A stretch of 32,863 nucleotides of DNA, taken from a virus. Taxonomy: Duplodnaviria; Heunggongvirae; Uroviricota; Caudoviricetes. Positions within the stretch are counted from its first letter, which is position 1, and each line of letters opens with the position of its first letter. The notes under the pieces were generated by a model. The model saw only the letters and a list, made by a program, of their open reading frames with translations, did no database searches and had not been told where the DNA came from. Position numbers and translations under genes: made by a program. The stretch lies in the IMG/VR virus record IMGVR_UViG_2700989508_000029. One strand, 5' to 3'. This document shows, piece after piece, positions 538 through 16,754 of the stretch.

Positions 538-556
538 TGGTGCCGATAATAGGAGT
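538..556. repeat. att core direct repeat (attL-type junction): tggtgccgataataggagt, identical to the 3' end of thrW at 31420..31438
   Basis: Exact 19-bp match seen in sequence; extends to about 24 bp with one mismatch (tt[t/g]aatgg...). An integrase gene starts 143 bp to the right. Confidence 0.8.
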
Positions 557-698
557 AAAACACTCGATTAATCTCGTGTTAATGCCATCACCTACGACCA
601 TTACTAATTGATTGAATCTTATAGAAAAATCATCATTTTCTATGCGTCACAATCAATTTTCACATTACAAACGCTCCGACACTTTAGCCGGAGATTTT

Positions 699-1976: not shown

Positions 1977-1983
1977 ACGCAAT

Positions 1984-2020
1984 AAAGAGGCTTCAACATA
2001 ATTGGTAGCCTCTTTTATAA
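1984..2020. terminator. putative bidirectional rho-independent terminator between convergent genes
   Basis: Hairpin aagaggct...agcctctt (8-bp stem, ~14-nt loop) with A/T-rich flanks, between the integrase stop (1976) and the stop of the 2057..2770 gene. Confidence 0.4.
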
Positions 2021-2056
2021 TTACATCGTTACAGAGCGTTTTAGAGGCATTTACGG

Positions 2057-2770
2057 CTATTCCTGTTTAAAGGCAGGAGTAATAGTGTCTTCACCTTCAC
2101 TACTTGATTTTTCAGTGTTAACACGTTTTTTCATATTAGCCCCAATGTTCTTAGATGGCTGTGTTTTGAGAGCTACAGTGTTTACAGTGCCATAAGAAAC
2201 TAATCTGATTTGTTCAAAGCTAAGATCAAATACCAGAGATTCGCTTGCCTCTTCTGTGTATTCGATGCCTGTTAAAACAACGTTCTCAAAAGTTTTATTT
2301 TCTGTAACAAGAAGAAAAGGCTGTCTACTGTCCATAATCTGATTCAGGTAATCAATAGCTAATGATCTTCTGTTCCCGTTCACCCCTGCACTCTTTAACA
2401 AGCCAGGATCGCTTTTAATCGGTGTTTCAGTGATCCTTCCTTTAAGAGAAAACTTATTGTTTTTAATTTGAACGTGATCAGACACAGTAGCACCATTTTC
2501 TACGGGGTAGCTTGTAACATCTGCCGAACGTCTCACGTTCACATCGTCAACACTATCAAAGGCCAGTGCCATATAATTTTCATAAACGTCATTGCCAGAA
2601 GATGCCAAGCCACTGGTAACAATAGCAAATCCATTTTCGCCTTTTGTTGTATTAGCTTTGCTATTTTCGTTTTTTGTAGAGTTTATATCTTGTTCTGCTT
2701 TGTAAACAGCCTGAACGTGTTGTTCTGGAGTATTTGCTGCACGTATGGTTAAAATCCCGGCGGTCGCCAT
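2057..2770 (-). CDS. hypothetical protein (237 aa), last gene of the low-GC operon
   Basis: Long ORF, low GC; no recognisable motif. Confidence 0.5.
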   Translation of the reverse strand: MATAGILTIRAANTPEQHVQAVYKAEQDINSTKNENSKANTTKGENGFAIVTSGLASSGNDVYENYMALAFDSVDDVNVRRSADVTSYPVENGATVSDHVQIKNNKFSLKGRITETPIKSDPGLLKSAGVNGNRRSLAIDYLNQIMDSRQPFLLVTENKTFENVVLTGIEYTEEASESLVFDLSFEQIRLVSYGTVNTVALKTQPSKNIGANMKKRVNTEKSSSEGEDTITPAFKQE

Positions 2771-2804
2771 AATAATAATTTTCCTTGTAATGTTATGGCG
2801 GGAA

Positions 2805-4634
2805 TTACCCGCCGTTAGATTGTCCTGATAAGCTGGTTAATGTTAATGATTTCAAGAAGCTATCCCGACTTGCTCTCGCTGTAAAATCCACATAATCGCT
2901 TAATCTTGATGTGTCAGAATTAATAGTAAGAGGAACCTCCGTTACCACTTCAAAGGTTGGATTTATATTAAACACAGGAGATAAATTATAAGCTGGAGTT
3001 GTCATTGCAAGATTATTTAAAGCACCCTGTTTGAGATTGGTTATCGGTGCTTCGCTGACTGACATTTTTACATCTGACACAGAAGAAGCATTATCATCGA
3101 AAAGCAATCCCTTAATCGTGTTAAAGAGAGAATGACTATTATCAGGTGCAGTTGTTGCAGTTCCAGCGCCTTTATATTGGTCAGGAACGAGATTAGAAAG
3201 ATGCTGTTTCATCCCTTCATTGCTTAATGGCGGTGCATCACCTAAATTTTTCTGAATAGCATCTGTCTTATCATCATTACGATTAAACCAGTTTACAATC
3301 TTCATAATAGCCTCAAAGAGACTTCCTACAGCTTCTCCCAGCTTCGTAAAATACGGAGTGAGATTAGAAAGGTTTTTCATAAACTCTTCCGTTACTTTTG
3401 GATCGAGAGATTTCATAAAGCCGTCTACGAATGCTACTTGTCTTGCATCAGAAAGCTGTGAAAGCTGTCTGTTTAGTTCTCTGAATTTAACGATAGATTC
3501 TTGCTGTGTTTCTGTTAGCCATTTTCCAGAGGCTTTTTGCTGATTAATACTTTCTTGTACATCTTTAACGGAACGTTGCCAATATTTTGACGTAAGCATC
3601 AAATCATCGCCCAGGTCTTCTAAACGTTGTCCAATTTGGGAGTCTGAAAACCCTTTTTTCATCATTCCATTAACAGCCTTAGAAATTAATCCGGCTGGAT
3701 TATCAGCAAATTTTTTAAGGTCGCTTTTGTTAATAACACCGATGTTTAGAAGTTCATTAATAGCATTATCACCGCCTTTCCATTCAGATTTTCCTTTCTT
3801 GTCTTTCAAGAATTCAGCTTCACTGTAGGATTTTGCGGCACGTTCCCTAACATCTTTCATCTGATCCAGGTATTTCCTAGCCCCTTGATCACCCATCATA
3901 GAGTCAACGCCGTTTCTATAGGCCCATTCTGTAATGTTGTACATCTGGTTAACGTCTACACCGCCCAGCTTGGCCCGTTGAATTAGCTCCCCTTGCGTCT
4001 CTGCGTTAGCGAAGCTGTTAGCCATAAATTCAGAGGTTTTACTAACAGCCATCACGCCAGCGGCAGCCGTAGCGCCTCCAAATAACAGAGCGCCCATCGT
4101 GGCGGAATTCCCTGATCCTCCCTTAACGGGGGCTAATTGAGTTTTTCTATTGCCATTAATCTTACGTTGTTGTTGTTGTAAGCGTTTCATTTGGCTATTC
4201 ATACGTGCAAGCGAGATAGCGCCTTGTTCGTATTGTTTCGCTATCTCTCTAGCCTGTGCAATAGCTTTGTATTGTTCCGCTACAGAGAGGCGGTGCATTG
4301 CACTTATAGAGCTTGACACATCAAGGAGTTTTAATTCTGCTTTCTCCTTACGTGCTGCTATTTGTTGCTGTTGCCTTGCCTGTGCTCTTGCTGCGGCAGC
4401 TTGTGCTCTTTGATTCTGTTTTTCGGTTTTAGCTTTCTGTTGAGCAATCTTGTCTACTTCGTTTTGTGCTTTCTTATAGCCTTTAGTGACATTATCAAAT
4501 CTTAATTTAGCTGGCTTGATGTTTTCTGCGAATTCCTTTAAGCCTGTAATAGAGTCTTTCGCTTTTTTCAAGCTGTCTTTATCTACACTAAATGTTACTG
4601 TGTTCTTAATTTTAGAAGTGTTAATTTCTAACAT
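2805..4634 (-). CDS. hypothetical 609-aa protein with N-terminal coiled coil and a Gly/Ala-rich hydrophobic segment (tape-measure-like or injection-like; speculative)
   Basis: ATG at 4634 preceded by aaGGGGA; Q/A/R/K-rich heptad-like N-terminal region (QRAQAAAARAQARQQQQIAARKEKAEL); GALLFGGATAAAGVMAVS hydrophobic stretch; no Walker A or other catalytic motif seen. Confidence 0.55.
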   Translation of the reverse strand: MLEINTSKIKNTVTFSVDKDSLKKAKDSITGLKEFAENIKPAKLRFDNVTKGYKKAQNEVDKIAQQKAKTEKQNQRAQAAAARAQARQQQQIAARKEKAELKLLDVSSSISAMHRLSVAEQYKAIAQAREIAKQYEQGAISLARMNSQMKRLQQQQRKINGNRKTQLAPVKGGSGNSATMGALLFGGATAAAGVMAVSKTSEFMANSFANAETQGELIQRAKLGGVDVNQMYNITEWAYRNGVDSMMGDQGARKYLDQMKDVRERAAKSYSEAEFLKDKKGKSEWKGGDNAINELLNIGVINKSDLKKFADNPAGLISKAVNGMMKKGFSDSQIGQRLEDLGDDLMLTSKYWQRSVKDVQESINQQKASGKWLTETQQESIVKFRELNRQLSQLSDARQVAFVDGFMKSLDPKVTEEFMKNLSNLTPYFTKLGEAVGSLFEAIMKIVNWFNRNDDKTDAIQKNLGDAPPLSNEGMKQHLSNLVPDQYKGAGTATTAPDNSHSLFNTIKGLLFDDNASSVSDVKMSVSEAPITNLKQGALNNLAMTTPAYNLSPVFNINPTFEVVTEVPLTINSDTSRLSDYVDFTARASRDSFLKSLTLTSLSGQSNGG

Positions 4635-4648
4635 TTAAAATCCCCTTA

Positions 4649-4852
4649 TTAATCATTTTTATCACCTTCTTTACTTAAGAAATGGTGTAGAGCCTGATCA
4701 ATACTCTCGTTTAATCTGAACATACGGGCTTTTACTCCTTCATATGGAACATCTAGGAGAGAACAGAGATATTTCAGATTTAACAAGCCTCTAGAATCAT
4801 TAGCATCTAAATGTACGTGTACACCATTTTTTGATTTCAAAATCACTTCCAT
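4649..4852 (-). CDS. hypothetical small protein (67 aa)
   Basis: ORF with GAGGTG upstream of the ATG; lies between the terminator and the 609-aa gene. Confidence 0.4.
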   Translation of the reverse strand: MEVILKSKNGVHVHLDANDSRGLLNLKYLCSLLDVPYEGVKARMFRLNESIDQALHHFLSKEGDKND

Positions 4853-4865
4853 ATTTTAATCACCT

Positions 4866-4920
4866 CTCAAAATTTAAAAAAATAAAAAAAAAGGCGAAGC
4901 GTGAATACACGCCACGCCTC
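4866..4920 (-). terminator. rho-independent terminator downstream of the 342-aa gene
   Basis: Read on the minus strand: imperfect GC hairpin ggcgtggcgtg...cacgcttcgcc followed by ttttttttt atttttttaaatttt; immediately 3' of the gene ending at 4937. Confidence 0.55.
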
Positions 4921-4936
4921 TATTACACGTTAAATA

Positions 4937-5965
4937 TTATTTAACAGTGATTTGAACGGAGAAGCCTACACCGTGGTTTACAACCATCTGGCTATTCTCT
5001 GTAACAACGTTAACAGCATCACCACGAGAAGATTCATAGCTATAGCTATACACCTCAGCAGGAGCGGCATTGATCAGTTCAAAAGTGCTGGAAGCAGCCC
5101 CGTAGATGTTCTGATATACATTAGAGCCTTTAGCAAACTTCGGAATCGCAACCGCATCAGAAGTCATATGTGCAAGGTGTAGCGGATCTACCAGTTTAAC
5201 AACATCAATGTTAGTTCCTGGGATAGTGAACGCTGTCACCCCTGGCAGCAGGTCACGACGCTGATACACAACGTTCCCCTCTTCCAGTGGGCTTACATAC
5301 TGGAATGCGTTTGCCATACCAGCAGAGAATCGAATTGCGGAGAAGGCTTCAGGTTTACAGAAAACAACAATACGCTCTACAGCAGACGCCTGGCTTTGTG
5401 CTTTCTCGATAATGTCAGTAGCAATCTGATCAAATTCTTTAAAAATCTTCGTGGTGTCAGTGCTGGAAGCGTTCACAGTGGCTTTCATAGCTGATACGTT
5501 AAACAGCTTGCCCCATTCGATAAGAACATCATCAGTTTTCGGTGTATAAGTTTTGCCCGAGAACAAAGAAGCAGCCAATACGCTCTCTTTTGTACGCTGA
5601 TACGCTACGTGGTGTTTAGCGATATATTCCGCATAAATATCAGTGAGTGTTTCCTGGAAATCAGTGCCAGGTTTACGTTTGCCTTGAACATCAGAAGGAC
5701 GGATCACATCTTCACGCAGGAAGTAAGGGATCTCGATCAGCCATTCTTTACCTTGTTCTCGCTTAGTAACATTGTGTTCAGAACTAAAACGGCTTGTCTC
5801 TTTGTTAAAGAGAGATTCGTTGCTTTCGACAAGCTGGGAAACAGCTACTTTATGAGATGTAACCCCTACAGAATCCGTAAAATCAAGAGTAGAGAGCAGG
5901 AAGTTACGCGTGCTGTGTGTCTGGAACAGAGGGATCAAATCAACGTAATCATTGCCTAGAATCAT
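4937..5965 (-). CDS. hypothetical 342-aa protein, possibly a highly expressed structural protein (major capsid or tail-type; speculative)
   Basis: Long ORF followed directly by a strong terminator; preceded by a 120-aa gene with an ATGA start/stop overlap pattern further upstream, an arrangement reminiscent of decoration/capsid gene pairs. No motif-level proof. Confidence 0.55.
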   Translation of the reverse strand: MILGNDYVDLIPLFQTHSTRNFLLSTLDFTDSVGVTSHKVAVSQLVESNESLFNKETSRFSSEHNVTKREQGKEWLIEIPYFLREDVIRPSDVQGKRKPGTDFQETLTDIYAEYIAKHHVAYQRTKESVLAASLFSGKTYTPKTDDVLIEWGKLFNVSAMKATVNASSTDTTKIFKEFDQIATDIIEKAQSQASAVERIVVFCKPEAFSAIRFSAGMANAFQYVSPLEEGNVVYQRRDLLPGVTAFTIPGTNIDVVKLVDPLHLAHMTSDAVAIPKFAKGSNVYQNIYGAASSTFELINAAPAEVYSYSYESSRGDAVNVVTENSQMVVNHGVGFSVQITVK

Positions 5966-5983
5966 TTATTATTATTCCTTTTA

Positions 5984-6346
5984 TTAAGAAGTGAAAACAG
6001 AATGGAACCCTTCAAGCTGGAAGCCTTTTTTAATTAATGCTGTTTTTGCTGCTTCACTTACAGCATTCAGCGCATCAGCTTTGATGCATACAAGCCCAGC
6101 ATTGCTACGTAAAACATCTACAGGTTTGTTTTCTCCAGCCGTTACAAATTCACTCATAACAACATAGATATCATCTCCTGATACATATTTAGCGCCAGTG
6201 CTGGTGATCAAGTCGCCGCATTCAACATCAGCAGGAAGAGAAGCAAAAACCTTGCTTTCTACAGAGGCAAACGGATCAGTACAATAACTTACAATATCTG
6301 TGAAAGTCTTTCGAACTGGAAACAGAGTGTCTAAATCAATAATCAT
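5984..6346 (-). CDS. hypothetical protein (120 aa)
   Basis: ATG at 6346 with GGAG upstream; its start overlaps the stop of the upstream gene (ATGA). Confidence 0.5.
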   Translation of the reverse strand: MIIDLDTLFPVRKTFTDIVSYCTDPFASVESKVFASLPADVECGDLITSTGAKYVSGDDIYVVMSEFVTAGENKPVDVLRSNAGLVCIKADALNAVSEAAKTALIKKGFQLEGFHSVFTS

Positions 6347-6555
6347 TTAGTAATCTCCTTAGCTTTTAATTTGATTAATTCATTAAGGGAAGGTGTAGAC
6401 GGAGAAGAAGGAGAAAAATATTTTTCAACACATCTTTCTACTTCTTCTACAGAACACCCAGCGTATTTAGCTACCATTTCGGTAATTTGTGGATTTATTT
6501 TCAGCATTTCATCTTTATACTTGATGATTTGCTCTTTATCATTTAAGAACAACAT
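6343..6555 (-). CDS. hypothetical protein (70 aa)
   Basis: ORF translationally coupled to the downstream gene. Confidence 0.45.
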   Translation of the reverse strand: MLFLNDKEQIIKYKDEMLKINPQITEMVAKYAGCSVEEVERCVEKYFSPSSPSTPSLNELIKLKAKEITK

Positions 6556-6904
6556 TTATATAAACCTTGTTACCTTGTTTAAAGTAAGAAATACAACTTT
6601 TAAGTTGCATAACGGGCAAAATAAAAGGCAGCATTTAGAGCCGCCTTTTATTAACTTGTACCTATGTAATTACCCTATGTTATGCATACTCCAAGATGTA
6701 TGCATAACAAAGGAAAAAAGAGGTAATAATGACACAGTATTTACTTAAGGAGGAGAAGCGGGGAGCGGAGATTTTACTCCCCTTTAACGACAAGAAGAAT
6801 TTTTAATATCGAACCAATAAAGGAAAAATAATCACCCCATATAATTATATTAACATATAATAGATGGAATGTCAAGATATTTTACAACTTTTTTGTTGCT
6901 TTTT

Positions 6905-7240
6905 TTATTCTTCTGTGATAGTGCCTAAGCGTTGAGCGAGTTCGACAAGTCCATCTCCCACATAGCGAACATCAGATTCGATATCTTCTATCCAGTTTGA
7001 TAGCTCCCATATCTGATCGGCTGTCAGGTATGCGTTTTCGCGCTTACAGAGCATCTCTACACGCTTAGAGAGGTGCTCAAAGGCATTCACAGCTAAATCC
7101 CAGTGTTTAAACGCCTCATTTAGTGACGCTGGTGTGTTTTCTTTGTATGCTTCAAGTTCAGCGCGGTTTAAAGGCAGAAGGTAATCATCCTCATAATAAT
7201 TAATTAGTGAGTAAATTGTGTCATACGTGTTTTTGTTCAT
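6905..7240 (-). CDS. hypothetical acidic protein (about 111 aa)
   Basis: ORF track gives 6905..7267; I prefer the ATG at 7240 (MNKNTYD...), which has GGAGA 8 nt upstream and sits 1 nt after the upstream gene's TAA. Confidence 0.45.
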   Translation of the reverse strand: MNKNTYDTIYSLINYYEDDYLLPLNRAELEAYKENTPASLNEAFKHWDLAVNAFEHLSKRVEMLCKRENAYLTADQIWELSNWIEDIESDVRYVGDGLVELAQRLGTITEE

Positions 7241-7241
7241 A

Positions 7242-7652
7242 TTAAAAGTCTCCATAGTGATCAGCATTATCTAGAATCTGGAAGTCTGGAACTAAGTTAT
7301 TTAGGCCATTTGTGGCGAGATAACCAACGTAGTGGTTATAGTCTTCAAATCCTAAAATCTGGTATTTGCGTAAATCAGAGCTATCAACGATATACTCTTT
7401 TCTTTTTCTAGGTTTCCAGAATACGCCAGGTGTTGAAGATAAGATTTCTTGTAAGGCGTTAAATTCATCTCCGCAAGGCACAGAGGGAGAATGTTCTATG
7501 ATCTCTGTTTTCCATTCGCCAGGGGCGCTATTTTGCTTGGTGAGCGTAACTAGCTCTTTAAAGTCTTTGCGTCTTAGAATAGATTTAGGTTTACTTAGAA
7601 GAGAAGCTGAATCCCCGATTTTCTTAACAACGTTGTTTTTTCTTTTTGCCAT
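7242..7652 (-). CDS. hypothetical protein with a basic N-terminus (136 aa)
   Basis: ORF; K/R-rich N-terminus (MAKRKNNVVKK) suggests nucleic-acid binding (inference). Confidence 0.45.
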   Translation of the reverse strand: MAKRKNNVVKKIGDSASLLSKPKSILRRKDFKELVTLTKQNSAPGEWKTEIIEHSPSVPCGDEFNALQEILSSTPGVFWKPRKRKEYIVDSSDLRKYQILGFEDYNHYVGYLATNGLNNLVPDFQILDNADHYGDF

Positions 7653-7784
7653 TATTTACTTTTCCTTTTCTTTTAAAGGAAAACACCCCGAAGTATGTTT
7701 CTAACGTGAGAAAGAACAATAACCAATACATAGCTACTATCATAATAATGTTTTCCTTTTATATTTTAATTACATAGAGAGATT

Positions 7785-8063
7785 TTAGAGAGTGGAATAG
7801 ATGAATTCTATTTCTTTATCTAGTCTTTTGAGATTGAATGTAGAGAAAGATAATTCTTTAATTTCTATAACACCGAAGTTTGATAGCTGTTTCAGCCAGA
7901 ATTTTAAACCATCTTCAGAGCACCCTGCTCGATGTAACACATCGCTATATTTTAGCGGTGTTGGCTTTCCTTTATAGAGGTAAGCAAGTGTTTCGTAGAT
8001 GCGTTTTCCTGTGTCGTTACACTGAATTCTGTCTACTTGATTTTTTACTAAATATTGAATCAT
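7785..8063 (-). CDS. hypothetical protein (92 aa)
   Basis: ORF with GGAGG upstream of the ATG. Confidence 0.45.
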   Translation of the reverse strand: MIQYLVKNQVDRIQCNDTGKRIYETLAYLYKGKPTPLKYSDVLHRAGCSEDGLKFWLKQLSNFGVIEIKELSFSTFNLKRLDKEIEFIYSTL

Positions 8064-8074
8064 AACCCTCCTTA

Positions 8075-8767
8075 TTAAAATGGAATATCAAAGTCTTCGT
8101 ATACTTTGGGATGTTTCTTAGCAAAATATGCCTCAATACCATTTGGTAGCTTTAACCTGTGCTTATAGGCTAACGATGTTGCAAATTCTATAAATGATGC
8201 TCCTCCTGTTCTAGTATTCTTCTGCTTGATAATAAGAGAGGCAAAATTCTTTAACACATCCTCCTCATTATCATTAGCTACCTTTTCACTTGATGAAACA
8301 GGTGTTTCTTCCGTCTCCCACGGTAAAGGCGTATCCCAATCATCATCAAGAACATCAAAAGAAGGCTGTTTATGGCCTTTAGGTTGTTCCTGTGCTTCTT
8401 CTGCCTCAGAAAGATCAGAGAGTGATGATTCTCCTGGGGGAGTAATATGTGCATCTGTGAGAGGGAGAGCATTGTAAATCAAAGATGAAATATACGGATC
8501 AGGATGTGGGGATGTTTCTAATAATCCCATCTCTTTAAGATCGTTTATCTTACGTTTAATTGTTGACGCTGAAGACTTAAAAATCTTAGCTAATGTTTCG
8601 TGACTTTCATAACAATTAAGGTTGTTTTCCTGATAACTAAGGAATCGAAAATAAAGCACAATATGTAATAGATCTAAATCTTTTCCTTGAGGGAATTTAT
8701 CAGAATAAATCTTTGATACATTATCAAACGTGTCATAGTGTTTTGTAAAAGTTAGTTGGTTAATCAT
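8075..8767 (-). CDS. winged-helix DNA-binding protein, replication-initiator/replisome-organiser-like (putative Rep)
   Basis: N-terminal pattern LHIVLYFRFLS...ETLAKIFKSSASTIKRKINDLKEMGLLE resembles phage replisome-organiser / RepA_N winged-helix domains; acidic C-terminus. Start placed at ATG 8767 (AAGGAG 8 nt upstream) rather than the ORF-track 8791. Confidence 0.5.
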   Translation of the reverse strand: MINQLTFTKHYDTFDNVSKIYSDKFPQGKDLDLLHIVLYFRFLSYQENNLNCYESHETLAKIFKSSASTIKRKINDLKEMGLLETSPHPDPYISSLIYNALPLTDAHITPPGESSLSDLSEAEEAQEQPKGHKQPSFDVLDDDWDTPLPWETEETPVSSSEKVANDNEEDVLKNFASLIIKQKNTRTGGASFIEFATSLAYKHRLKLPNGIEAYFAKKHPKVYEDFDIPF

Positions 8768-8820
8768 TAAAAATCTCCTTGATGTAATCACGCTCTATGG
8801 CGCTACTATGGTGATAAAAA

Positions 8821-8991
8821 TCACTTGCTTTTATTTGAGAGTGTTTCAGCCTCTCTTTTCAACATATCAAGAATGTAATCTGTGACAGTGATCCGTCTAC
8901 TTCTGGCTTCTTTAAATAACACCTGAAATACTTCATCAGGAATATGAAAGCAAGTGCGTGGTTGTCTTTTCTTTTCTGTAGTTTCGCTCAT
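8821..8991 (-). CDS. ribbon-helix-helix (CopG/Arc-like) DNA-binding protein (about 56 aa)
   Basis: Start at ATG 8991 (MSETTEKKRQ...) with a strong AAGGAG 6 nt upstream; sequence PRTCFHIPDEVFQVLFKEARSRRITVTDYILDML fits a beta-strand/helix/helix RHH fold. Confidence 0.5.
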   Translation of the reverse strand: MSETTEKKRQPRTCFHIPDEVFQVLFKEARSRRITVTDYILDMLKREAETLSNKSK

Positions 8992-9010
8992 AGTTTTCTC
9001 CTTCTCTTCT

Positions 9011-9199
9011 TTACTCTGTTTCAGATTCTTTTTCATTTTTTCTTAGTTCATCAATAATCTTGAGTGCTTCATTGAAGCAAGCTGCTCGCTCTGGATAACC
9101 TCGACTCCTTGCCATATTACGATTCATTACTACTTGGTGGCGTGTAAGCTCACCTTTTTTAAATGCCTGGACGACGTGCTCAGGTGTAAACCATTTCAT
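9011..9199 (-). CDS. hypothetical small protein (62 aa), first gene of the operon
   Basis: ATG with AGGAG 8 nt upstream; an upstream promoter-like region contains three aaaacgctct repeats (9430..9600). Confidence 0.45.
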   Translation of the reverse strand: MKWFTPEHVVQAFKKGELTRHQVVMNRNMARSRGYPERAACFNEALKIIDELRKNEKESETE

Positions 9200-9855
9200 A
9201 AAAAACTCCTTATTCAGTTAAAAGAAAAAACACCTTGCAAGCCTGACGGCTTCAAAGTGCATTGATTTTGATTATTTAGAGAAGAATGTTTTTCTGTCCC
9301 TCTAATACCTATTATTACATATAAAGAAACATTTGTCAATACCTTTTCATAAAAAATCTGATCTTTTTCATGCACTTACATTTTTTCTTAGCAATTCGTG
9401 CTCTCCTATGTAGTGCTATTCTTCCTTATTGTCTAAAACGCTCTAAAACGCGTTCTAACGAGATTTTGATAAAAGCAATACATTCCCTTATCTAATGGCT
9501 GTTTAGCTCGCCAGAGGCTTATTTAAGTGGCTTATTTTGTATTTGTTAGATGATGATAGATATAAAACAGAGAGTCACTTTATAAAACGCTCTGTAAAGC
9601 CCTGTAGTGAGTTTATTATATGTAGGCAATGCGTTTCCATTCCCTACCCTGCTTAATGTTGTTAGAGAAGCATTTAGACCCCTTATTTTTAATTACCTAA
9701 AGTATCCTCTATACATCTCTGTTATGAAACACCTCTGAATCCTTCATAAAACACATTATGACGCAAAGAACACTTTTCTAAGGTGATTCCCTTCCTGAAT
9801 GCTGTTTCTTGCGTCAGAGAGCTACACAGAGCTTATAAAGATATTATTAATAATA

Positions 9856-9916
9856 AAGTAGATAAAGTAAGTAAGATAAGTAAGTAAGATAACTAAGATA
9901 GATAAGATTAATAAGA
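9856..9916. repeat. AAGTAAG / AGATAA short tandem repeat array
   Basis: Seen in sequence: gtagataaagtaagtaagataagtaagtaagataactaagatagataagattaataagat. Confidence 0.7.
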
Positions 9917-9961
9917 TCAGAATTCTCTTTCGGTGTCGCCTCTGGCTTTTCCACCGAAAAC

Positions 9962-10117
9962 AATTACACGACTACAGAATGTAGGAAGTGAAATTGTATT
10001 GAGGCTTAGTGAAATTACACGAGGAAAGCAGAGTGTAATTGAGCTTTAGCCGCTCTCTTCGAGTAATTACACAACTACAGAGAATAACGAGAGTTATTAA
10101 ATGTAGGAAGTGGAATT
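9962..10117. repeat. two copies of aattacac(g/a)actacaga...atgtaggaagtg(a/g)aatt, plus further TTACAC/GTGTAA half-sites
   Basis: Copy 1 at 9962..9993; copy 2 at 10066..10117 with an ~18-bp insertion; palindromic ttacacgaggaaagcagagtgtaa in between. Confidence 0.65.
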
Positions 10118-10340
10118 AAGAGGTAGAGAGTTACACATAAGCAATCAGTATGATTGGTTAGGTGATTACTCTTCTGCGCACAGCGCAATAGTATTTCTTC
10201 GTGGGCGTTACCGCCACGATAGTTACACGAAGAAAGTAACGCTTTGCTTTCGGTGTGAGCGGAACGGGCCAGCCACGAAGCCCGAAAGGTAGCGGAGTAA
10301 GGCTGCTTGCCAGAGAGTGAAGCTAACGCCGGAAGGCAAA

Positions 10341-10502
10341 AGATCATATATATATAGTATAAAGAATATTATTATGATCTAATTAATAATCTAATATAGT
10401 TTTATTAATAGTCTTATTGTAGTTCACAGTGACCTACCCCCTAGCTCACTATGACCTACCCCCTAGGTCACAGTGACCTATATAGTATAAAGAATATTAT
10501 TT
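10341..10502. repeat. 23-bp direct repeat tatatagtataaagaatattatt (10341..10363 and ~10479..10501) flanking a block of tgacctaccccctag repeats
   Basis: Seen in sequence; the inner block (10425..10479) holds two direct tgacctaccccctag copies plus an inverted gtcacagtgacc; a third related copy lies at 10703..10738. Confidence 0.7.
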
Positions 10503-10526
10503 ATATTATTTAATTATAGTATTGGT

Positions 10527-10626
10527 GGAACTCATTTCCTAGGTAGGTAGGAACTCATTTCCTAAGTAGGTAGGAAACCACTTCCTAGGTTACTTCCTAA
10601 ATAGATCGGAAATCATTTCCTAGGTG
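10527..10626. repeat. iteron-like array of (c)atttcctagg units (about 5 copies, ~22-bp period)
   Basis: ggaactcatttcctaggtaggtaggaactcatttcctaagtaggtaggaaaccacttcctaggttacttcctaaatagatcggaaatcatttcctagg. Confidence 0.7.
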
Positions 10627-10641
10627 TTATTTATTCTTATC

Positions 10642-10699
10642 GGGTATCAGTTTTGATAGGGGTATCAGACTTGATAGGGGTAACAGAATTCTGTGGGGG
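10642..10699. repeat. three ~19-bp direct repeats ggtatcag(nn)ttgatagg
   Basis: gggtatcagttttgataggggtatcagacttgataggggtaacagaattctgtggggg. Confidence 0.7.
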
Positions 10700-10739
10700 T
10701 AGTTCACTATGACCTACCCCTAGCTCACTGTGAGCTACC

Positions 10740-11680
10740 GTTACATTCAATCATCTTCCGATGTGTAATATCGTTACATTCAATAATTAGTCTATGTAAC
10801 ATATCGTTACTACCAACTTTCTTACAAAGAGCATTTCAGATAGCTGAATGTAACCTCTCGTTACATCCATTTGTCACATAGCACTCTGTGTAATGCCTTT
10901 CTATGTGTGTGCCATAATCCCCCCTATATTCCCTGTGTAAATCATAGAATATCCCTAACTTATTCCTGTGTAATTCCATACTAAAAATTCAATGAAAAAA
11001 GTAGCTTAAAAGTTCAATTCTTACTTTCTTCACTTTTACATCACTTTCGCAAATCCTTGTGTAATGCGGCTTACAGAGCACCATCAGAAATTGTTGGCTA
11101 AAAATTGTTCTGCTTGTTTCTTAATGAGTTTTCTTGTTTGTGCAAATTTTAAAATTTATTTTGTTTTTACAGCCTTATTTCGTGTAATGCGTGGCATAGC
11201 AAGCCCTTTTCTTGTGTTGTCAAGACATTTGGCAACGTTCAAACATCTGTTTAGAAATGCCAAATTGTTGATCTAACAAATAAACCTGTATAAACAGAAC
11301 ACCATTTAATCTATTCCCCTGTGTAATCCACTACATCACACGATAAAAACAAAAAACTTTTAATTATATTTCATAGCACACAAAAGTCAACAGAAGCCCT
11401 CTCGTGCTCCTACGTAAAAAATCCATCACTTTTCCCCTGATACATCAACTCAAGGCGTTCTATGTGTTCCTTAGTGCATATTACGATTATTATGTTAAAT
11501 GGATTTTGGCCTATATTTTGACCTGCACCCGCATAAACACTGGTTTCATCGCTTACAGCCCTTGTGAGACGTGGTGCTGTTTCTAGCATCTGATCCGACA
11601 TAAAACCGATCATTCTCGTGTTTAGTGAAAGTTTAGTGAGAGACATTACAGAAAGGCTTTCTGTGTAATGATTTAATAGG
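10740..11680. repeat. dispersed tcgttacat (4 copies, 10740..10870) and ctgtgtaat (at least 7 copies) motifs across a region with little coding potential
   Basis: Seen in sequence: accgttacattcaat, atcgttacattcaat, atcgttactacc, ctcgttacatcc; then ctgtgtaatgcc, cctgtgtaaatc, cctgtgtaattcc, cttgtgtaatgcgg, tcgtgtaatgcgtgg, cctgtgtaatcc, ctgtgtaatgatt. Confidence 0.6.
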
Positions 11681-11793
11681 TAAAAACGATGTTGATTACG
11701 CAAGAAAATTCCTTGCTGATATTTGGGGATTCTGGATTTTCCAGATCGGGGGGCGCTGAAAATCGCGTTAAGCACTTCTCGCAATCTAGCCAT
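11410..11793 (-). CDS. questionable ORF (127 aa) inside the repeat tract
   Basis: ATG start but no Shine-Dalgarno; overlaps the ctgtgtaat repeats; unremarkable composition. Listed only because nothing else covers the span. Confidence 0.2.
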   Translation of the reverse strand: MARLREVLNAIFSAPRSGKSRIPKYQQGIFLRNQHRFYLLNHYTESLSVMSLTKLSLNTRMIGFMSDQMLETAPRLTRAVSDETSVYAGAGQNIGQNPFNIIIVICTKEHIERLELMYQGKSDGFFT

Positions 11794-12137
11794 AAGGGAA
11801 GGGATATAGGTATTTAGATGTATTTATAGCTAATTTATAGCTATTTATTTTTTATTTACCTTTATTAAAAATAACCTTATAAATCAATAAGATACATAAT
11901 TATCTGTTTATATTCTAATCAATTAAATCAAGTTTAATACCCTTAAATAACCTGAAAATAGCCTTAAATACCCCAATAATTAATTTTAAGGTTTTCCGTG
12001 TTCTCTTCTGCATTATGAAAATGCAAAATAAGGCACAAAACAAGCTCACATACGCATTAAACACACATCACCTATACATCCCTATGCCAAGCAATGAAAA
12101 CAGCGTTAGAATGCGTCCTGTTGCGTTCTGGAGATTT

Positions 12138-12296
12138 TCAGAAATCCTCTCTAAGCCATTTCAACTCACTAAGGAGTTTTCTTTCTTCGTTCTCTCGTTG
12201 CTTTCGCTCTAGCCAGGCTTTTCCCTCTGGCGTAGACAGGAACTTACGAGCGTGAATCTTGCGGTTATTACGTTTGATAGCTGCAATGTTTTTCAT
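12138..12296 (-). CDS. possible small basic protein (52 aa; MKNIAAIKRNNRKIHARKFLSTPEGKAWLERKQRENEERKLLSELKWLREDF), absent from the ORF track
   Basis: My own translation of the minus strand; GAGG 6 nt upstream of the ATG; K/R-rich. Confidence 0.25.
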   Translation of the reverse strand: MKNIAAIKRNNRKIHARKFLSTPEGKAWLERKQRENEERKLLSELKWLREDF

Positions 12297-12900
12297 CGTG
12301 TGCCTCTGTATTCATATGAAAATTAACAAGTTACATACTACACAGGGAGACTACGCATAAAACACAATACAAGTAAAGATACATTTTCAAGACAATAGGA
12401 GCCATAAAGCGCCTTTGATGGTTATACCAAAAAATAAGCGCCGTAGGCGTATCCACTAAAAAGGGCTTTTTCACAAAAGCTATGAAGTCTTAGCAGTTCT
12501 TCTCTTATCAGGCACCCGTTGTACTCCGGTGGACGAAACCGTGCTAGAGCTTGATTCTTTCCCGATCAAGTTAGGTTTTGAAGAGGTGGGCTTTAATCCA
12601 CTATGCACTTAAAACTCTTCCCATCATTTAGCCTGTTTATCCTCTGCAACGTCTCACGACGTGTAGCATCATTGGACACCGCGCCAGGTGTGGAACATCT
12701 TGCTAAGAGTTTTGGTAGAAGGTTTAGAGACGGTGGCACGTCTTCCAGCTTCAAAGGAACTTGTTACGAGGTTGAGCCTGGGAACTACTCGCCCATACGT
12801 GTTACACTACCAAAGCCCATAACAACGTATAGGCGTTTGTAAGTGATAACAGAAGATACAATTTCTTAGAGAAGTTAAGCTAAGTTATTGATTTTCTTAA

Positions 12901-12917
12901 TGGTGCGATAATAGGAA
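12901..12917. repeat. degenerate third att-like site (tggtgc-gataatagga), putative junction between the two tandem elements
   Basis: Matches 16 of 17 positions of the att core with one deleted C; the left flank (ttgattttcttaa) resembles the flank of the 538 copy; the right flank (atacccccaaaagtacccccaaa, ~12965..12990) resembles the motif between the P4-type int and thrW (acccccataagtaccccca, ~31285..31308). Confidence 0.45.
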
Positions 12918-13257
12918 CAAAACAAACAATAAAAATACATTGATATATAAAGACATTTTCCCATTACATCTTTGTAGATACCCCCAAAAGTACCCCCAAA
13001 CAATTTTCTCTCACCACCATTTGCACATAAAGCAGCCATGTACAACTGGTAGTTGAACAGGCGGGTAGACCGTTCGTTCAGTAAATACCTGATATTTCCG
13101 CCAACGAGAAATTGCGTTGGCTGGCAGAGTGCAAATTTGCACGATAACCTAACCCATTGATTCTTTCGAAAACCCGCAATGCAGGAAGCCGGATAACACC
13201 ATTTTATAGCTCCGATCCCTTCAAAGTGAGGGGTAATTTGCCAAAACAGAGAGAGCA

Positions 13258-13545
13258 TTACTGTCTCTGGCAATCTTTATCGCGATAACGCCTGAAGTAC
13301 CCTCTCGCTTCCTCATCCATACCAAGAGCCGAATGAGTCCGCTTAACTGCCTGTCTTAAATCTCCGAATCTGTCTGTAGTTGCTGGTGGGCGTGCCGCCT
13401 TACGGATACATTCAGAGCGTCTGTTTGCTGCATGTTCACGTTCTTTATCGCCATCTGCCAGCATCATGACTTCTGCCCATCGTGCGGCAGCTCTCCGGTA
13501 TAGCCCTTTTGACTCCAGCTCTTCAGCTTTCCTGTCCTTTATCAT
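13258..13545 (-). CDS. PerC-family transcriptional regulator-like protein (95 aa)
   Basis: N-terminal LESKGLYRRAAARWAEVM resembles the conserved PerC/Pch motif; basic C-terminus. From motif memory. Confidence 0.55.
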   Translation of the reverse strand: MIKDRKAEELESKGLYRRAAARWAEVMMLADGDKEREHAANRRSECIRKAARPPATTDRFGDLRQAVKRTHSALGMDEEARGYFRRYRDKDCQRQ

Positions 13546-13575
13546 TTCTGCCTCTCAGATTATATAGATAAGCAA

Positions 13576-13706
13576 AAAGGTGTTGGTTCAGTTGGTTCAG
13601 TTGGTTCAATTTGTAAAGAGCGTTGTTTTTATTGTGTTTTTTCTAAAATATTGAACCAACATCAACTCATTTTGAACCAACACAGCCCAGCTCTGAACCA
13701 ACAACA
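13576..13706. repeat. iteron module A: three tandem GTTGGTTCA units, an AT-rich spacer, then three inverted TTGAACCAAC units; putative replication-origin-like site
   Basis: Seen in sequence; 13576..13617 is the exact reverse complement of 22113..22154. Confidence 0.7.
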
Positions 13707-13744
13707 CAGCGATAGATTTGCGATTGGTCCGTTATTTTCTGGCT

Positions 13745-13795
13745 GATATTTGAGCGTATAACAGTGTTATACAGTGGTATACTGTATGGATATTA
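13745..13795. promoter_or_regulatory. operator-like palindromes upstream of the RHH regulator gene
   Basis: gtataacagtgttatac (near-perfect palindrome) and ggtatactgtatgg directly upstream of the 13805/13817 start. Confidence 0.35.
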
Positions 13796-13804
13796 CTCAC
13801 TGAT

Positions 13805-14245
13805 ATGGTCTTTGCAATGAGCAAATCTAATCTGATCGCGTTCCGCATCCCATCTGAATTGCAGGATGAGTTTAATCGGTCTGTTCTCGCTTCTGGAGGG
13901 GATAAAACCTCCTGGCTTGTTGATGCGATTCGCATGAAGCTGGGACAGCCGGAAAAGTCTATTGATTCACGAATGCTTGGGCTGGTGGAGCGCATGGAAA
14001 AAGCCGCAGCATCGCTTATTGCCGGAAAGCCGAACATCCCACCAAAGCCATATAACGAAACGGCAGTTATAAAGATCATTGCCGATACCATCCGACAGGG
14101 ATTTGATAATGGGCGTGTGATAGCTGAACGGCTCAATGAAGCAGGCTACCAAACAAAAGCTGGTAAAGCGTGGGATAAAGACATTTACAGCGCGTGGAAG
14201 CGTCAGGATAACAATATTAAAAGAATCAATACGCTGCTTCAGTAA
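13805..14245 (+). CDS. two-domain DNA-binding regulator: N-terminal ribbon-helix-helix (Mnt/Arc-like) plus C-terminal recombinase-type DNA-binding motif
   Basis: SNLIAFRIPSELQDEFNRSVL...WLVDAIRMKL fits RHH; C-terminal IAERLNEAGYQTKAGKAWDKDIY resembles the DNA-binding motif of recombinase-associated domains. Start may be ATG 13805 or 13817. Convergent with the Abi gene. Confidence 0.55.
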   Translation: MVFAMSKSNLIAFRIPSELQDEFNRSVLASGGDKTSWLVDAIRMKLGQPEKSIDSRMLGLVERMEKAAASLIAGKPNIPPKPYNETAVIKIIADTIRQGFDNGRVIAERLNEAGYQTKAGKAWDKDIYSAWKRQDNNIKRINTLLQ

Positions 14246-14274
14246 TTGATCAGTGTATAAATGATATTTATCGC

Positions 14275-15252
14275 TCAATCGCTCCCTTTCCGCCCTTCAG
14301 CTACAGGGTCGTTGTCGGCGATAACAAAACCTAAGTCCTGAGAGAATCTCTCTCGTGGGAATCCTTTAGCAGGTAAACCCATTGAATCATATCCACATCC
14401 GGGAACATTTGGTTTAGAGTCAATAAGGTCTGCAATTTGCCGAAGCCATGTTGATCCCGGACCAAGTCGTTTAACTAAGTACCAGATAATACAGATCGCG
14501 CTAAAAATCCTCTCGCAACTCTCTGGATGGAGATTAAGTCCGTCAAAGTATTCATTATCCGGTACTGGAACTCGGGGATGCTTTCTATTCCATATTCTGG
14601 AATGGTGAGCGCAACGATTCCTTATGAGATTAAGGCACTTCAACCATTTTGCAAATGTCTGCTTATTATCAATGCCAAAACGACGTATAATTTTCCCCTG
14701 CATATGACCATTAAGCATCGCATAATATTTAGACATCTGACCAAAATCCCAGGTCTCCACCGCCACCCAAAATGGAATCTCCTTGCCTTGGCTTCGATGC
14801 CATTCAATACAGTCATCTCTGCTTTCGTCTAATTTTACTTTTTGCTTATACACCCAATGCTCGAAGGCAGATGAGAATTTTGGATTAATGTATTTTGATG
14901 ACATGTAGGCAAGTGGATCATTGCGACCAACCTCATGCGCGATGACTGAACGAACATGAATCTCTATTCTTTCGATAGCATCAATCATCAAAAGACGCAG
15001 TTTTTTGTCAAAAAGATATAGATCGTACGTCTTCTCGAAACTGGTACCAGTAAGAAATCGGTCTGTTCTGTACGAAAGACCTTTATCTGTTGTCGCAATA
15101 ATTCTTGATGGGTACCAAAAACCTGACAATCGATAATATCCAACCTGCGACAGCTTACGTATCGCACGATTTCGATCATTGATAATCATGCCACGTTCAA
15201 GTAGCAATCCTAGCAATTCGTGATAGTCCTTATGAGGCTTTGCGGCAATCAT
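14275..15252 (-). CDS. Abi_2-family (AbiD/AbiF-like) abortive-infection protein
   Basis: N-terminal signature KPHKDYHELLGLLLERGMIINDRNRAIRKLSQVGYYRLSGFWYP matches the Abi_2 family pattern; low GC. ORF track starts at a GTG (15297); I prefer ATG 15252. Confidence 0.7.
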   Translation of the reverse strand: MIAAKPHKDYHELLGLLLERGMIINDRNRAIRKLSQVGYYRLSGFWYPSRIIATTDKGLSYRTDRFLTGTSFEKTYDLYLFDKKLRLLMIDAIERIEIHVRSVIAHEVGRNDPLAYMSSKYINPKFSSAFEHWVYKQKVKLDESRDDCIEWHRSQGKEIPFWVAVETWDFGQMSKYYAMLNGHMQGKIIRRFGIDNKQTFAKWLKCLNLIRNRCAHHSRIWNRKHPRVPVPDNEYFDGLNLHPESCERIFSAICIIWYLVKRLGPGSTWLRQIADLIDSKPNVPGCGYDSMGLPAKGFPRERFSQDLGFVIADNDPVAEGRKGSD

Positions 15253-15885
15253 AGTGGCGAAACAAAAGATAATAAAAGGCCCGACCGTGAAACTCACATG
15301 CCTGAAATCGGCGGCGGAGAAACAGAGGATCGGGCTCGGTTGCCTGTAACTCTATCCGAAGTTATCCACATGTCAATGCACAGTTACTTAGGAAACTAAC
15401 ATAGGTACTATCATCACTCACGAAAAACCACTATATGTGGTTTTTATTCATATCGTTATCCACTACAGGCTGTGTCAATAACTTTTACCTATTAATTGGG
15501 TAATTTCTACATTTTCCTATGCTGGCTAGTTTCTCTACTGAAAAGTTGGCACTCCTTAATCGCTTTTCGGTTAATACTATCGGTCTTCATATTGCCAGCA
15601 GCATACGCCATCCGATAATTTCGATGCTACGCGCGCGTACTTGTCGCAAAATATCAGGCAAAGGCCAGATTCAGAACGTCGTGATAACCACCAGCACAAC
15701 ATGAGATGTCATGTAACACGATTTATCACATCAGATACATGTGATTGGTGTACCCGCATAAAACATCGTCATAGCGCGTCCTGTGCGCATATACGCCGAT
15801 AATCAACACATCACCACCACTCTGTCTCGTGTAGAGAACAGTTTCATGGTATCCCCCGCCATCGTGTGCGTACTGGTCGGACGTA

Positions 15886-15906
15886 GTTGCAAAATTTTTG
15901 CAACTG
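15886..15906. promoter_or_regulatory. near-perfect palindrome agttgcaaaatttttgcaact (operator-like) in the intergenic region upstream of the membrane-protein gene
   Basis: Seen in sequence; nearby gcgcgtactggtc direct repeats (x2) and the palindrome ggatttgaaatcc. Confidence 0.35.
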
Positions 15907-16121
15907 ATACCCCTCGCGCGCGTACTGGTCACGAAATTGGTGTTTTGCTGTGGCAGTGATATCAGAAAAATCTTCCTGTTTCACATAAAGCGGATATGCG
16001 CGTACTGTAACGGCCCCATCAACGGGGATCGGATTTGAAATCCCGACCCAAGCTATGTACCAAATGCCATGTCTTGGATATATGATGATTGCCATTCTAA
16101 ACAACGCTAAAGGGGGTTGGT

Positions 16122-16736
16122 GTGAGCAGAAAAGATACTAAAGAATTGCTAACTATCTGCATGGTGTACTTTTCAATTTATTTTTGTGCATACATGATAG
16201 TCCCAGATGAGTTTGAACATGGCAGTATTATTTATTCCATAACATTCTATTTTTTAGAGCTAACACCAATTTTGGCTATCCTTTTGGCAATACATATTTA
16301 TTTTTCCTTAAAAAAAGAATCGACTAATTGGGAGAAGGTATGGAGAGACAGAGGATTTCTAACATCACCTAAAGATGATGCATATGAGAGTGATTTTTCT
16401 GACTTTATAACAAACTACTACTCCAGCGAACAATTCAAAAATAGACTGTCTGATGTTTGGGAAACAGCAATGTATTCCATAGGGATTATATTATTGATAC
16501 TTACTGGTATTGCTCAATATGTTTTTAACATTGACTTATCATTAAATCCTGAAAATTTAATATCGCCATTGATTTTTGGTGAGATATTGATCTTCTCATT
16601 CGGAATTTTCTTGAGTGTTGTTCTCTGCTCATTATGCAAACTACTGACTAACAGGTATCCAGGTGAAGCAAGGAGAGCAAGAAAGGCAAATCCATATTAT
16701 CTTTTATTTCCTAATGGAGACAGCAGAGATATCTAA
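16122..16736 (+). CDS. small inner-membrane protein (about 4 TM helices), candidate superinfection-exclusion/defence protein
   Basis: Four hydrophobic segments (LLTICMVYFSIYFCAYMIV, ITFYFLELTPILAILLAIHIYF, AMYSIGIILLILTGIAQYVF, LIFGEILIFSFGIFLSVVLCSL); low GC; sits where sieA lies in P22 (directly after gene 16, opposite strand). Function is inference. Confidence 0.6.
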   Translation: MSRKDTKELLTICMVYFSIYFCAYMIVPDEFEHGSIIYSITFYFLELTPILAILLAIHIYFSLKKESTNWEKVWRDRGFLTSPKDDAYESDFSDFITNYYSSEQFKNRLSDVWETAMYSIGIILLILTGIAQYVFNIDLSLNPENLISPLIFGEILIFSFGIFLSVVLCSLCKLLTNRYPGEARRARKANPYYLLFPNGDSRDI

Positions 16737-16754
16737 GCCATCCATGGCTACCAG

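Follow-up and report, generated by a model that had tools for sequence, protein, structure and literature searches.

Positions 9200-11800 of the virus record IMGVR_UViG_2700989508_000029 (32,863 nucleotides; "the window" below means this whole stretch) form a tract that is poor in genes and dense in short repeats, and the question raised by this locus is what such a stretch of DNA does. The initial annotation, made from the letters alone, proposed a multi-protein binding platform or a cluster of small RNAs. Our analysis placed the tract inside an integrative element, designated element A. With moderate confidence, we interpret it as combining a promoter, a composite iteron origin and a mimic of the helper terminus (for packaging) in an island that resembles a satellite of virulent phi92-like myoviruses.

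The tract lies inside an integrative element at thrW

The tract is 100% identical to sequences of O26 and O103 Escherichia coli strains. Its position relative to a tRNA gene in the window was established from copies of the 3' end of that gene:

31420-31495, tRNA-Thr(CGT) gene (thrW)
536-556, attachment site core (attL) of element A, AATGGTGCCGATAATAGGAG, 21 nt identical to the tRNA-Thr 3' end at 31418-31438
12898-12916, attR core of element A, a copy of the tRNA-Thr 3' end minus one base

In strain RM8426, the DNA matching window positions 1-12916 directly adjoins the tRNA. This junction, together with the copies of the tRNA 3' end, indicates that two integrative elements stand in tandem at thrW in the window: element A (approximately 536-12916, 12.4 kb), which contains the repeat tract, and element B (12917-31436). 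Element A also occurs alone at thrW in other strains. Its identification with the Sakai prophage Sp1, which occupies the same tRNA, was considered and found to be wrong, Sp1 being a lambda-like remnant.

A segment of the tract matches the genome end of phi92-like phages

A search of 50,697 phage records with the tract returned one matching region only:

11717-11794, plus strand, copy of the inner boundary of the phi92-like direct terminal repeat, with the equivalent of the end between 11770 and 11771 (...CGCGTTA/AGCAC...)

Positions 11745-11790 were identical to phi92 positions 318-363 at 43 of 46 nt, and in several relatives of the element 40 of 40 matched; Klebsiella and Citrobacter phages of the same subfamily showed 78-81% identity over 68-78 nt of the region. 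The phi92 record has its left direct terminal repeat annotated at 1-343, and the right end of the genome reads ...GGGGGGCGCTGAAAATCGCGTTA. The match straddles the repeat end at 343, and the shared segment is therefore centred on the phage genome end.

The segment is common and well preserved on the bacterial side. Window positions 11700-11800 matched 426 of 5426 complete E. coli genomes, with an identity of at least 95% in 413 of them. Among 15 E. coli variants of the element, the site was found in 10, in some with all 40 of 40 positions, even where the upstream cassette differed, and it was kept when that cassette was exchanged for one with a serine recombinase. A relative in K. pneumoniae (L055, 3776-3835) has the site in the same relative place; its variable part, AAAATGGGGG, matches Klebsiella phage phi1_175008 and not phi92. 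This relative also carries a Dam methylase as cargo.

At the level of sequence, element A carries a cis site that matches a packaging or terminus sequence of its presumed helper. We read the shared segment as a signal for the packaging nuclease of the helper to cut and package element A. After infection by the helper, which would induce the element, the nuclease would recognise satellite concatemers at 11717-11794, cut them and package them, as happens to P4 with the cos site of P2.

Alternatively, the segment might not be a packaging site at all, representing instead a recombination scar, or a site through which another function of the helper is sensed or exploited (for example early regulation or an end-protection protein). 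Several observations detract from the packaging role and favour this alternative. The terminal repeat is represented by one of its boundaries only; the left terminal-repeat end of the helper was not found in element A, so that at most a partial mimic of the repeat is supported. The site was unrecognisable in 3 of the 15 variants, and two others carry a diverged version (the L002 variant) that has no match in the phage collection. In addition, the first 87 nt of the tape-measure gene (4547-4633) share 86% DNA identity with positions 12200-12286 of the helper-type phage alia, far above the rest of the gene, which indicates that exchange of DNA between satellite and helper does occur. However, a scar or an unrelated regulatory site would hardly be expected to be centred on the exact genome-end position, to be at least 95% identical in 413 genomes, to persist when the upstream cassette is swapped, and to appear in another genus in the version of the local helper lineage. 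We consider a non-packaging role unlikely, though deserving of attention, and retain the packaging signal as the preferred reading.

A further, weak similarity to phi92 was noted at window positions 9673-9694, where 21 of 22 nt match the unique right end of the phage approximately 925 bp before the right terminal repeat (E 1e-4 in a small search).

Tandem repeats beside an AT-rich stretch vary with the initiator

The centre of the tract, 10336-10870, is supported as a putative iteron origin with a cognate initiator encoded nearby:

8075-8791, minus strand (ATG start at 8767), Rep, phage-type replication initiator with an N-terminal domain of type A

The comparison set consisted of the 15 E. 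coli variants, which are mutually related, so that the co-variation counts given here are not independent events. The variants share a layout made up of a GC patch, an AT-rich stretch, tandem dyad repeats, GTAAC-N5-GTTAC dyads and a conserved block. Within it, the tandem repeats vary between variants together with the N-terminal domain of Rep, which falls into five types:

Type A, nine variants including this window: 17-bp palindrome with a CCCCC spacer, at least two copies in 9 of 9 and at most one in the other 6
Type B, three variants: TAACAGnnTTCTGT (TAACAG dyads), 4-5 copies in 3 of 3 and at most one in the other 12
Type C, one genome (L020): TTCCTAGG array
Type D, one genome (L006): most GGGGTATCAnnnnTGATAGGGG units
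Type E, one genome (L007): three GTAAC-N5-GTTAC dyads immediately following the AT-rich stretch

A Citrobacter relative, whose Rep domain is 67% identical to type B, has the same TAACAGAATTCTGT repeats, and the iterons of the K. pneumoniae relative are other dyads, TACATCAAAATGATGTA. The suggestion in the initial annotation that origin iterons serve the adjacent Rep-like protein was thus supported, as the repeats beside the AT-rich stretch switch family exactly with the Rep N-terminal domain. Its idea of a multi-protein binding platform held in part, in the sense that several arrays (TTCCTAGG, TATCA-TGATA and TAACAG) correspond to the iteron sets of other Rep types and stand here beside a non-matching Rep; they may be inert, or they may serve as decoys that titrate the initiators of competing elements.

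The assignment of Rep was based on profile matches. The protein matched phrog_270 at 2.9e-9, and eight of its nine weaker PHROG matches were replication initiator or loader families; the matches included "replication initiation O-like" PHROGs, and Pfam HTH_36 was hit at 3e-5. All seven other Rep variants tested that occupy this position and have a named match fell to phage replication-initiator or helicase-loader families, and no repressor family was present among the reported PHROG matches of the Rep variants. The protein at the Rep position in the Serratia relative matched only a family of unknown function.

The AT content was 84.5% at 10336-10419 and 89.6% at 10479-10526, and of all 60-bp windows in the tract, the one beginning at 10351 has the highest AT content. 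Arrays adjoined a stretch of 85-90% AT in all variants inspected, and close relatives differed by whole repeat units. Hence, what is expected of an iteron origin was found at this place: at least three tandem repeats of approximately 17-22 bp at helical-phase spacing (22-bp period here; 23 and 18 bp in other arrays), an adjacent AT-rich stretch able to unwind, an initiator gene nearby, recognised by homology, and repeats that change with the DNA-binding domain of the initiator. DnaA boxes were absent from the origin region. In the proposed mechanism, 10336-10870 would be an origin of the lambda O/ori kind, with the N-terminal winged-helix domain of the adjacent Rep binding dyad sites in tandem about two helical turns apart, and the AT-rich stretch unwinding.

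Some of these observations would also be explained if "Rep" were a transcriptional repressor and the tandem palindromes were operators for divergent transcription in the manner of lambda OL/OR. In NCBI the protein bears the name "transcriptional regulator", and no relative of solved structure was found for it by sequence, so that the palindromes could be operators. Three 17-bp dyad sites in a row with short spacers resemble the lambda operators, and co-variation of the sites with the DNA-binding domain is equally expected of a repressor; the relatedness of the 15 variants further reduces the weight of that co-variation for the origin. A search for Rep homologues returned only near-identical proteins. 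On the other hand, Rep and the seven tested variants matched initiator or helicase-loader families and no repressor, and the arrays always adjoin the 85-90% AT stretch. The arrays overlap no promoter-like site but a weak one (9/12), the strong operon promoter lying approximately 1.1 kb away, and element A has no other replication gene. A repressor with operators is, in our opinion, quite improbable; from the replication origin as the preferred reading, we infer binding of the iterons by Rep and replication of the element.

Two putative origin cassettes stand in tandem

The central region can be divided into two parts, each beginning with an AT-rich stretch:

10336-10480, origin cassette 1: AT-rich 10336-10419 with a 23-bp sequence (10351-10373), then three type-A iterons (17-bp palindrome plus CCCCC, 22-bp period) at 10420-10480
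10479-10699, origin cassette 2: second copy of the 23-bp sequence, AT-rich to 10526, resembling L020
Arrays of cassette 2: five TTCCTAGG-type units, two TATCA-N4-TGATA units (10642-10677) and one TAACAGAATTCTGT (10681-10694)

In relatives, the three arrays of cassette 2 go with Rep types C, D and B, respectively. Variant L019 has only the AT-rich stretch and type-A palindromes, which is the layout of cassette 1 alone, and L020 has only the AT-rich stretch with the TTCCTAGG, TATCA and TAACAG arrays. Each of these two variants carries one of the cassettes; the window holds both, joined at the 23-bp sequence. This start of the AT-rich stretches is exact in the window and in L020 and has two mismatches in L019. 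L002 and L006 lack the TTCCTAGG array.

The origin of the window would most simply be explained as the element's own cassette with a foreign one in tandem, brought together by origin recombination between variants. The first cassette would be cognate to the type-A Rep of the element, and the second, with the same 23-bp start, would carry the arrays of other Rep types. This explanation is weakened in two ways: no protein encoded in the regulatory half of element A varies together with the TTCCTAGG and TATCA arrays, and their assignment to Rep types C and D comes from one genome each. The two stacked cassettes would account for the presence of many repeat families at one place.

The repeat load of the tract was well above chance. 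Relative to 200 dinucleotide shuffles, the number of 8-mers with at least three copies was 53 vs. 11.8 ± 4.0 (9-15 in coding controls), and that of 9-mers was 20 vs. 1.4 ± 1.4. All repeat families listed in the initial annotation were present at or near the positions given there, and its remark that the tract is not CRISPR-like was correct, the units being contiguous or irregularly dispersed and having no spacer pattern. The 23-bp direct repeat is exact (10351-10373 and 10479-10501). Between its copies, the reported palindromic repeats are 22-bp units with a 17-bp palindromic core at 10420-10480; Tandem Repeats Finder (TRF) detected 2.8 units there and 1.9 at 10700-10739. The core, TAGnTCACnnTGAnCTA, occurs at five positions vs. 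0.01 expected. The five (c)atttcctagg iterons were recovered as five A(T/C)TTCCTA(G/A) units at 10534-10625, which make up the TTCCTAGG-type array (10527-10625). Two of the three reported 19-bp iterons are GGGTATCAGnnnTGATAG units at 10642-10677, whereas the supposed third (10678-10699) is a different dyad, TAACAGAATTCTGT. The four tcgttacat units correspond to CGTTAC at 10738, 10771, 10804 and 10858, and two of them belong to full GTAAC-N5-GTTAC dyads. The remaining repeats in and beside the origin region are as follows:

10700-10737, two further 17-bp palindromes (type-A iterons)
10793-10811 and 10849-10867, GTAAC-N5-GTTAC dyads (region 10738-10870), with half-sites at 10738 and 10771
9856-9917, AT-rich microsatellite AAGTAAGATAAGT, 3.9 copies with a period of 13 (TRF)

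The last of these is the AAGTAAG/AGATAA microsatellite already noticed in the initial annotation; its copy number differs among relatives by an indel of the 13-bp unit. The duplicated units were likewise found, at 9962-9978/10065-10081 and 9978-9995/10100-10117, both pairs being 94% identical.

A polar motif flanks the putative origin on both sides

The dispersed ctgtgtaat motif, of which at least seven copies had been reported, was found as GTGTAAT in 11 copies within 9963-11669. The window contains 15 copies vs. 4.1 ± 2.1 expected, and none of 100 shuffles reached 15. The motifs form two clusters:

9962-10117, left GTGYAAT cluster, three dyads with ATTACAC ... GTGnAAT arms
10763-11669, right GTGTAAT cluster, eight motifs, all on the plus strand, at 10763, 10888, 10968, 11059, 11182, 11321 and 11663, and a degenerate one at 10935

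The right cluster includes the conserved block at 10962-11100. The copies point away from the origin, leftward on the left (the three dyads) and rightward on the right, and they are present whatever the Rep type, both in six variants inspected with their sequence context and in a wider tally of the 15 variants. They may be bound by a factor common to all E. coli variants. GTGYAAT was ruled out as a DnaA box and showed no enrichment in relatives from other genera. A helper promoter or binding motif was considered for GTGTAAT and the other repeats and rejected, given that these words showed no enrichment in phage alia.

A small hairpin at window positions 11052-11072 has an AAGCC/GGCTT stem and an 11-bp loop, TTGTGTAATGC. 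In variant L008 (approximately 10675-10700), the loop is inverted except for one base, which flips one GTGTAAT motif.

Promoters, RNA and coding potential of the gene-poor tract

The promoters and conserved blocks around the origin are listed below:

9200-9560, minus strand, leader and promoter/operator region of the leftward o62-RHH-Rep operon (RHH, ribbon-helix-helix)
9339-9311, leftward, sigma-70-like promoter TTGACA-17-AATAAT with an upstream TG, promoter scan score 11/12
10195-10330, GC-rich patch directly left of the AT-rich stretch, 56% GC vs. 36% for the tract
11390-11363, minus strand, toward the origin, sigma-70-like promoter TTGACT-16-TATAAT, score 11/12
11345-11800, non-coding module of approximately 450 bp, approximately 99% identical between otherwise divergent variants
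11800-12137, AT-rich stretch with an array of 4.3 TATAGCTATT copies (11805-11848), end of an exchangeable cassette (11333-12143)
12138-12296, minus strand, coding sequence for 52 amino acids, the sole annotated gene of 9200-12916 (PGAP), with no Pfam or PHROG match
12297-12916, conserved right arm including the attR core (12898-12916), identity of 97-99% across all variants

The strong leftward promoter at 9339-9311 would drive the o62-RHH-Rep operon. Its leader region contains two copies of TCTAAAACGC and a palindrome at 9429-9472, and the block 8760-9549 is 72-89% conserved in divergent variants. The promoter at 11390-11363, both hexamers of which are kept in the divergent variants L007 and L009, might serve origin activation or a long leader. 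It lies in the 450-bp module, which is approximately 99% identical between variants whose genes are only 30-88% identical; the copy of the phage terminus occupies the end of this module.

The second promoter would fit a tract that is transcribed into at least one non-coding RNA, such as a long leader, a primer or origin-activating RNA, or small RNAs, with the repeats as RNA motifs. It is conserved and strong, it points left into approximately 1 kb of gene-free DNA that has no predicted terminator, and the GTGYAAT motifs are strand-polar. In contrast, Rfam 15 gave no match in 9000-12950 even at E<=1, and the only matches in the window at the gathering score were C4, isrK and tRNA, all outside the tract. 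Fold z-scores ranged from -2.1 to -0.6. The GC-rich patch, for which hairpin potential had been suggested, is real in its composition and conserved in the E. coli variants inspected; its folding is only modest (z = -2.1 and -1.8). Consensus folds of the conserved block (10955-11105) were weak, at -7 to -12 kcal/mol for 150 nt. The central arrays differ between variants in the number of whole units and in family, as would be expected of protein-binding sites. Since the GC patch, the right arm and the block 10955-11105 all folded weakly, the proposed cluster of small RNAs was set aside despite the conserved leftward promoter, and an RNA function of the tract is considered doubtful.

The description of the tract as non-coding stood, as no gene is supported in 9200-11800; its end was placed too early, since the gene-poor stretch reaches 12916. 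PGAP annotated nothing under 9200-11800 in the listed genomes, and no open reading frame (ORF) of the tract had a Pfam match. The longest ORF (11410-11793, minus strand) was judged unlikely to be a real gene: its relatives are only near-identical sequences of Escherichia and Shigella with inconsistent lengths and frameshift-like ends. At 137 codons, it nevertheless exceeds the longest frame in all 100 shuffles (maximum 130), and a recombinase gene fills part of the region in relatives, as would suit a tract of decayed coding sequence with frameshifted remnants of known genes. However, when six-frame peptides of the tract were compared with the helper phage, the rest of the window and distant relatives, the only matches were in the terminus segment and in one stretch near att. 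The recombinase has left no trace, and the gene-free layout is kept across the E. coli variants and the Citrobacter, Klebsiella and Serratia relatives. The initial annotation had named a degraded known gene as one finding that would overturn it, and this explanation now has very little probability. The same is true of centromere-like partition sites, another of its suggestions: tandem short repeats are typical of parC/parS sites, but no partition gene (ParA/ParB/ParM type) was found in element A by Pfam or PHROGs, and the element is chromosomally integrated.

Several observations concern the DNA around these blocks. The cassette 11333-12143 is exchangeable, and many relatives have a 179-aa serine recombinase instead (Resolvase, 1e-33; L002, 14236-14775); phi92 encodes a resolvase/invertase of its own (gp053). 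The right part, 12143-12916, is 97-99% identical in all E. coli variants, also in those in which the remainder of the element falls to 70-90%, and some genomes hold this piece only. It gave no RNA-fold signal (z -0.6/-0.8), and positions 12632-12847 are 70% identical to the end of a Citrobacter relative (L056, 1178-1404). A second gene-free gap of element A, at 6556-6904 between the head-side and regulatory genes, measures 350 bp here and approximately 1 kb in divergent variants (L008, 6357-7352).

Gene content and spread of element A suggest a phage satellite

The remaining genes of element A are as follows:

612-1976, tyrosine integrase (Pfam Phage_integrase 3e-17; PHROG integrase 5.6e-33)
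2057-2770, Dit-like tail protein, tail-tube initiator (Pfam 3e-29)
2805-4634, tape-measure-like protein (PHROG 1e-54)
4937-5965, major capsid protein (Phage_cap_E)
Between 4649 and 9199, small proteins of no assigned function, without matches
8821-9036, Arc/RHH-like protein, weak match (PHROG 0.004)

The Dit-like protein and the "tail tube initiator" of Justusliebigvirus (phi92-like) phages share 62% identity, and the tape measure and capsid proteins are 31-53% and 22% (E 4e-6) identical, respectively, to those of phage alia, in which the three genes have the same order. No terminase, portal, sheath or tube protein was detected among the element A proteins by Pfam or PHROG, which rules out an autonomous phage. 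Element A has the features by which phage satellites are generally recognised, namely an integrase, att sites, small size and an incomplete set of virion and packaging genes. Pfam and PHROG scans found no P4-like markers (alpha primase-helicase, sid, psu, delta, cos site) in it. Markers of phage-inducible chromosomal islands (PICI) and capsid-forming PICI (cf-PICI) were also not detected among its proteins (alpA, pri-rep, small terminase; portal, protease, connectors).

Parts of the tract were found in 727 of 5426 complete E. coli genomes, approximately 210 of which have at least 80% of it. The capsid family extends to Citrobacter, Klebsiella, Enterobacter, Cronobacter, Dryocola, Serratia and Sodalis, and a search of genome contigs with the capsid protein returned one Escherichia locus only. 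In the relatives from Klebsiella, Citrobacter and Serratia, the gene order is the same and a gene-poor stretch of 1-2 kb lies upstream of the initiator operon. No description of a satellite of phi92-, rV5- or Stephanstirmvirinae-type phages, or of this thrW element, was found in the open-access literature searched.

The available records of the element itself speak against a satellite that moves in phage particles. No virome, excised or packaged form of element A was found in the public assemblies searched, and the IMG/VR loci are, to judge by their names and sizes, prophage regions in the genomes of sequenced strains. Logan contigs of 12.4 kb begin within tRNA-Thr and thus represent the integrated form. 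On our reading, element A probably parasitises phages.

A broader proposal can be put forward tentatively, and we would give it somewhat less than an even chance. Element A and its relatives may form a satellite family of virulent phi92-like myoviruses (Stephanstirmvirinae) that is packaged via the copy of the terminal-repeat boundary and has its own capsid, tape-measure and tail-tube-initiator genes. On this view, co-resident satellites would compete by means of the stacked non-cognate iterons, and the polar GTGYAAT arrays would represent a previously unrecognised cis element for replication or packaging. If so, a common chromosomal island that copies the genome-end signal and some of the tail and head genes of these phages would live as a satellite on a virulent E. 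coli phage, and it would probably also be a defence against such phages. The tract offers several handles for further work: a defined candidate packaging site, five natural pairs of Rep and iteron specificity, and a tandem-origin arrangement showing the shuffling of origin modules. Should the satellite reading be wrong, the tract would still be a clear, if ordinary, example of modular rep-ori exchange in an integrative element.

The neighbouring element B

Element B has an integrase of its own (30040-31254) and a P4-type primase (22176-24935; phrog_1139, 2e-178). It also encodes P22-type ejection/DNA-transfer proteins (16755-20281) and an Abi-like protein (14275-15297), and Rfam matched the C4 antisense RNA at 27354-27441 and isrK at 27504-27581. 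Similarity to the P4-like Sakai prophage Sp2 was patchy only.

Comparison with known systems

The proposed origin resembles that of lambda (O/ori-lambda), where tandem dyad iterons about two helical turns apart also stand beside an AT-rich stretch and co-vary with a type-specific N-terminus of the initiator. It differs in lying approximately 1.6 kb outside the initiator gene and not inside it, in having no P-like helicase loader encoded, and in combining two cassettes of different specificity. The origins of Staphylococcus aureus pathogenicity islands (SaPI) and other PICI offer a second parallel, as these are satellite-borne iterons flanking AT-rich DNA, and their Rep-ori specificity differs between islands. 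In contrast to these islands, element A has a Rep with no primase or helicase partner and lacks alpA, pri-rep and terS, and its presumed helper is a virulent myovirus of 148 kb.

As a probable satellite that encodes its own major capsid protein, element A is comparable to the cf-PICI (PMC12772148). These, however, have a full head module (portal, protease, head-tail connectors and small terminase), none of which was detected in element A.

To our knowledge, the PLE (PICI-like element) of Vibrio cholerae, with its helper ICP1, is the only well-studied satellite of a large virulent myovirus. By analogy, the life style of element A would be closest to that of PLE/ICP1. The two share the form of a small integrative island that would live off a large virulent myovirus, and in both an iteron origin with a cognate initiator lies in non-coding DNA (PMC12772148). 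Unlike PLE, element A carries homologues of structural genes of its helper; no similarity to PLE marker proteins was seen, and none was searched for.

For the terminus copy, the closest precedent appears to be P4, which shares cos with P2. In both cases, a short segment identical to the helper lies at the cut of the helper genome end, and hardly any other non-coding DNA is shared with the helper. P4 also has dispersed short repeats in two clusters around its origin (ori and crr). The presumed helper of element A has direct terminal repeats and not cohesive ends, no homologues of sid, psu, delta or alpha were seen, and, unlike P4, element A has genes of its own for a capsid protein, a tape measure and a tail-tube initiator. 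Compared with these systems, the origin is of a known kind, and what is new is the stacking of two cassettes and the copy of a terminal-repeat boundary linking the element to virulent phi92-like phages.

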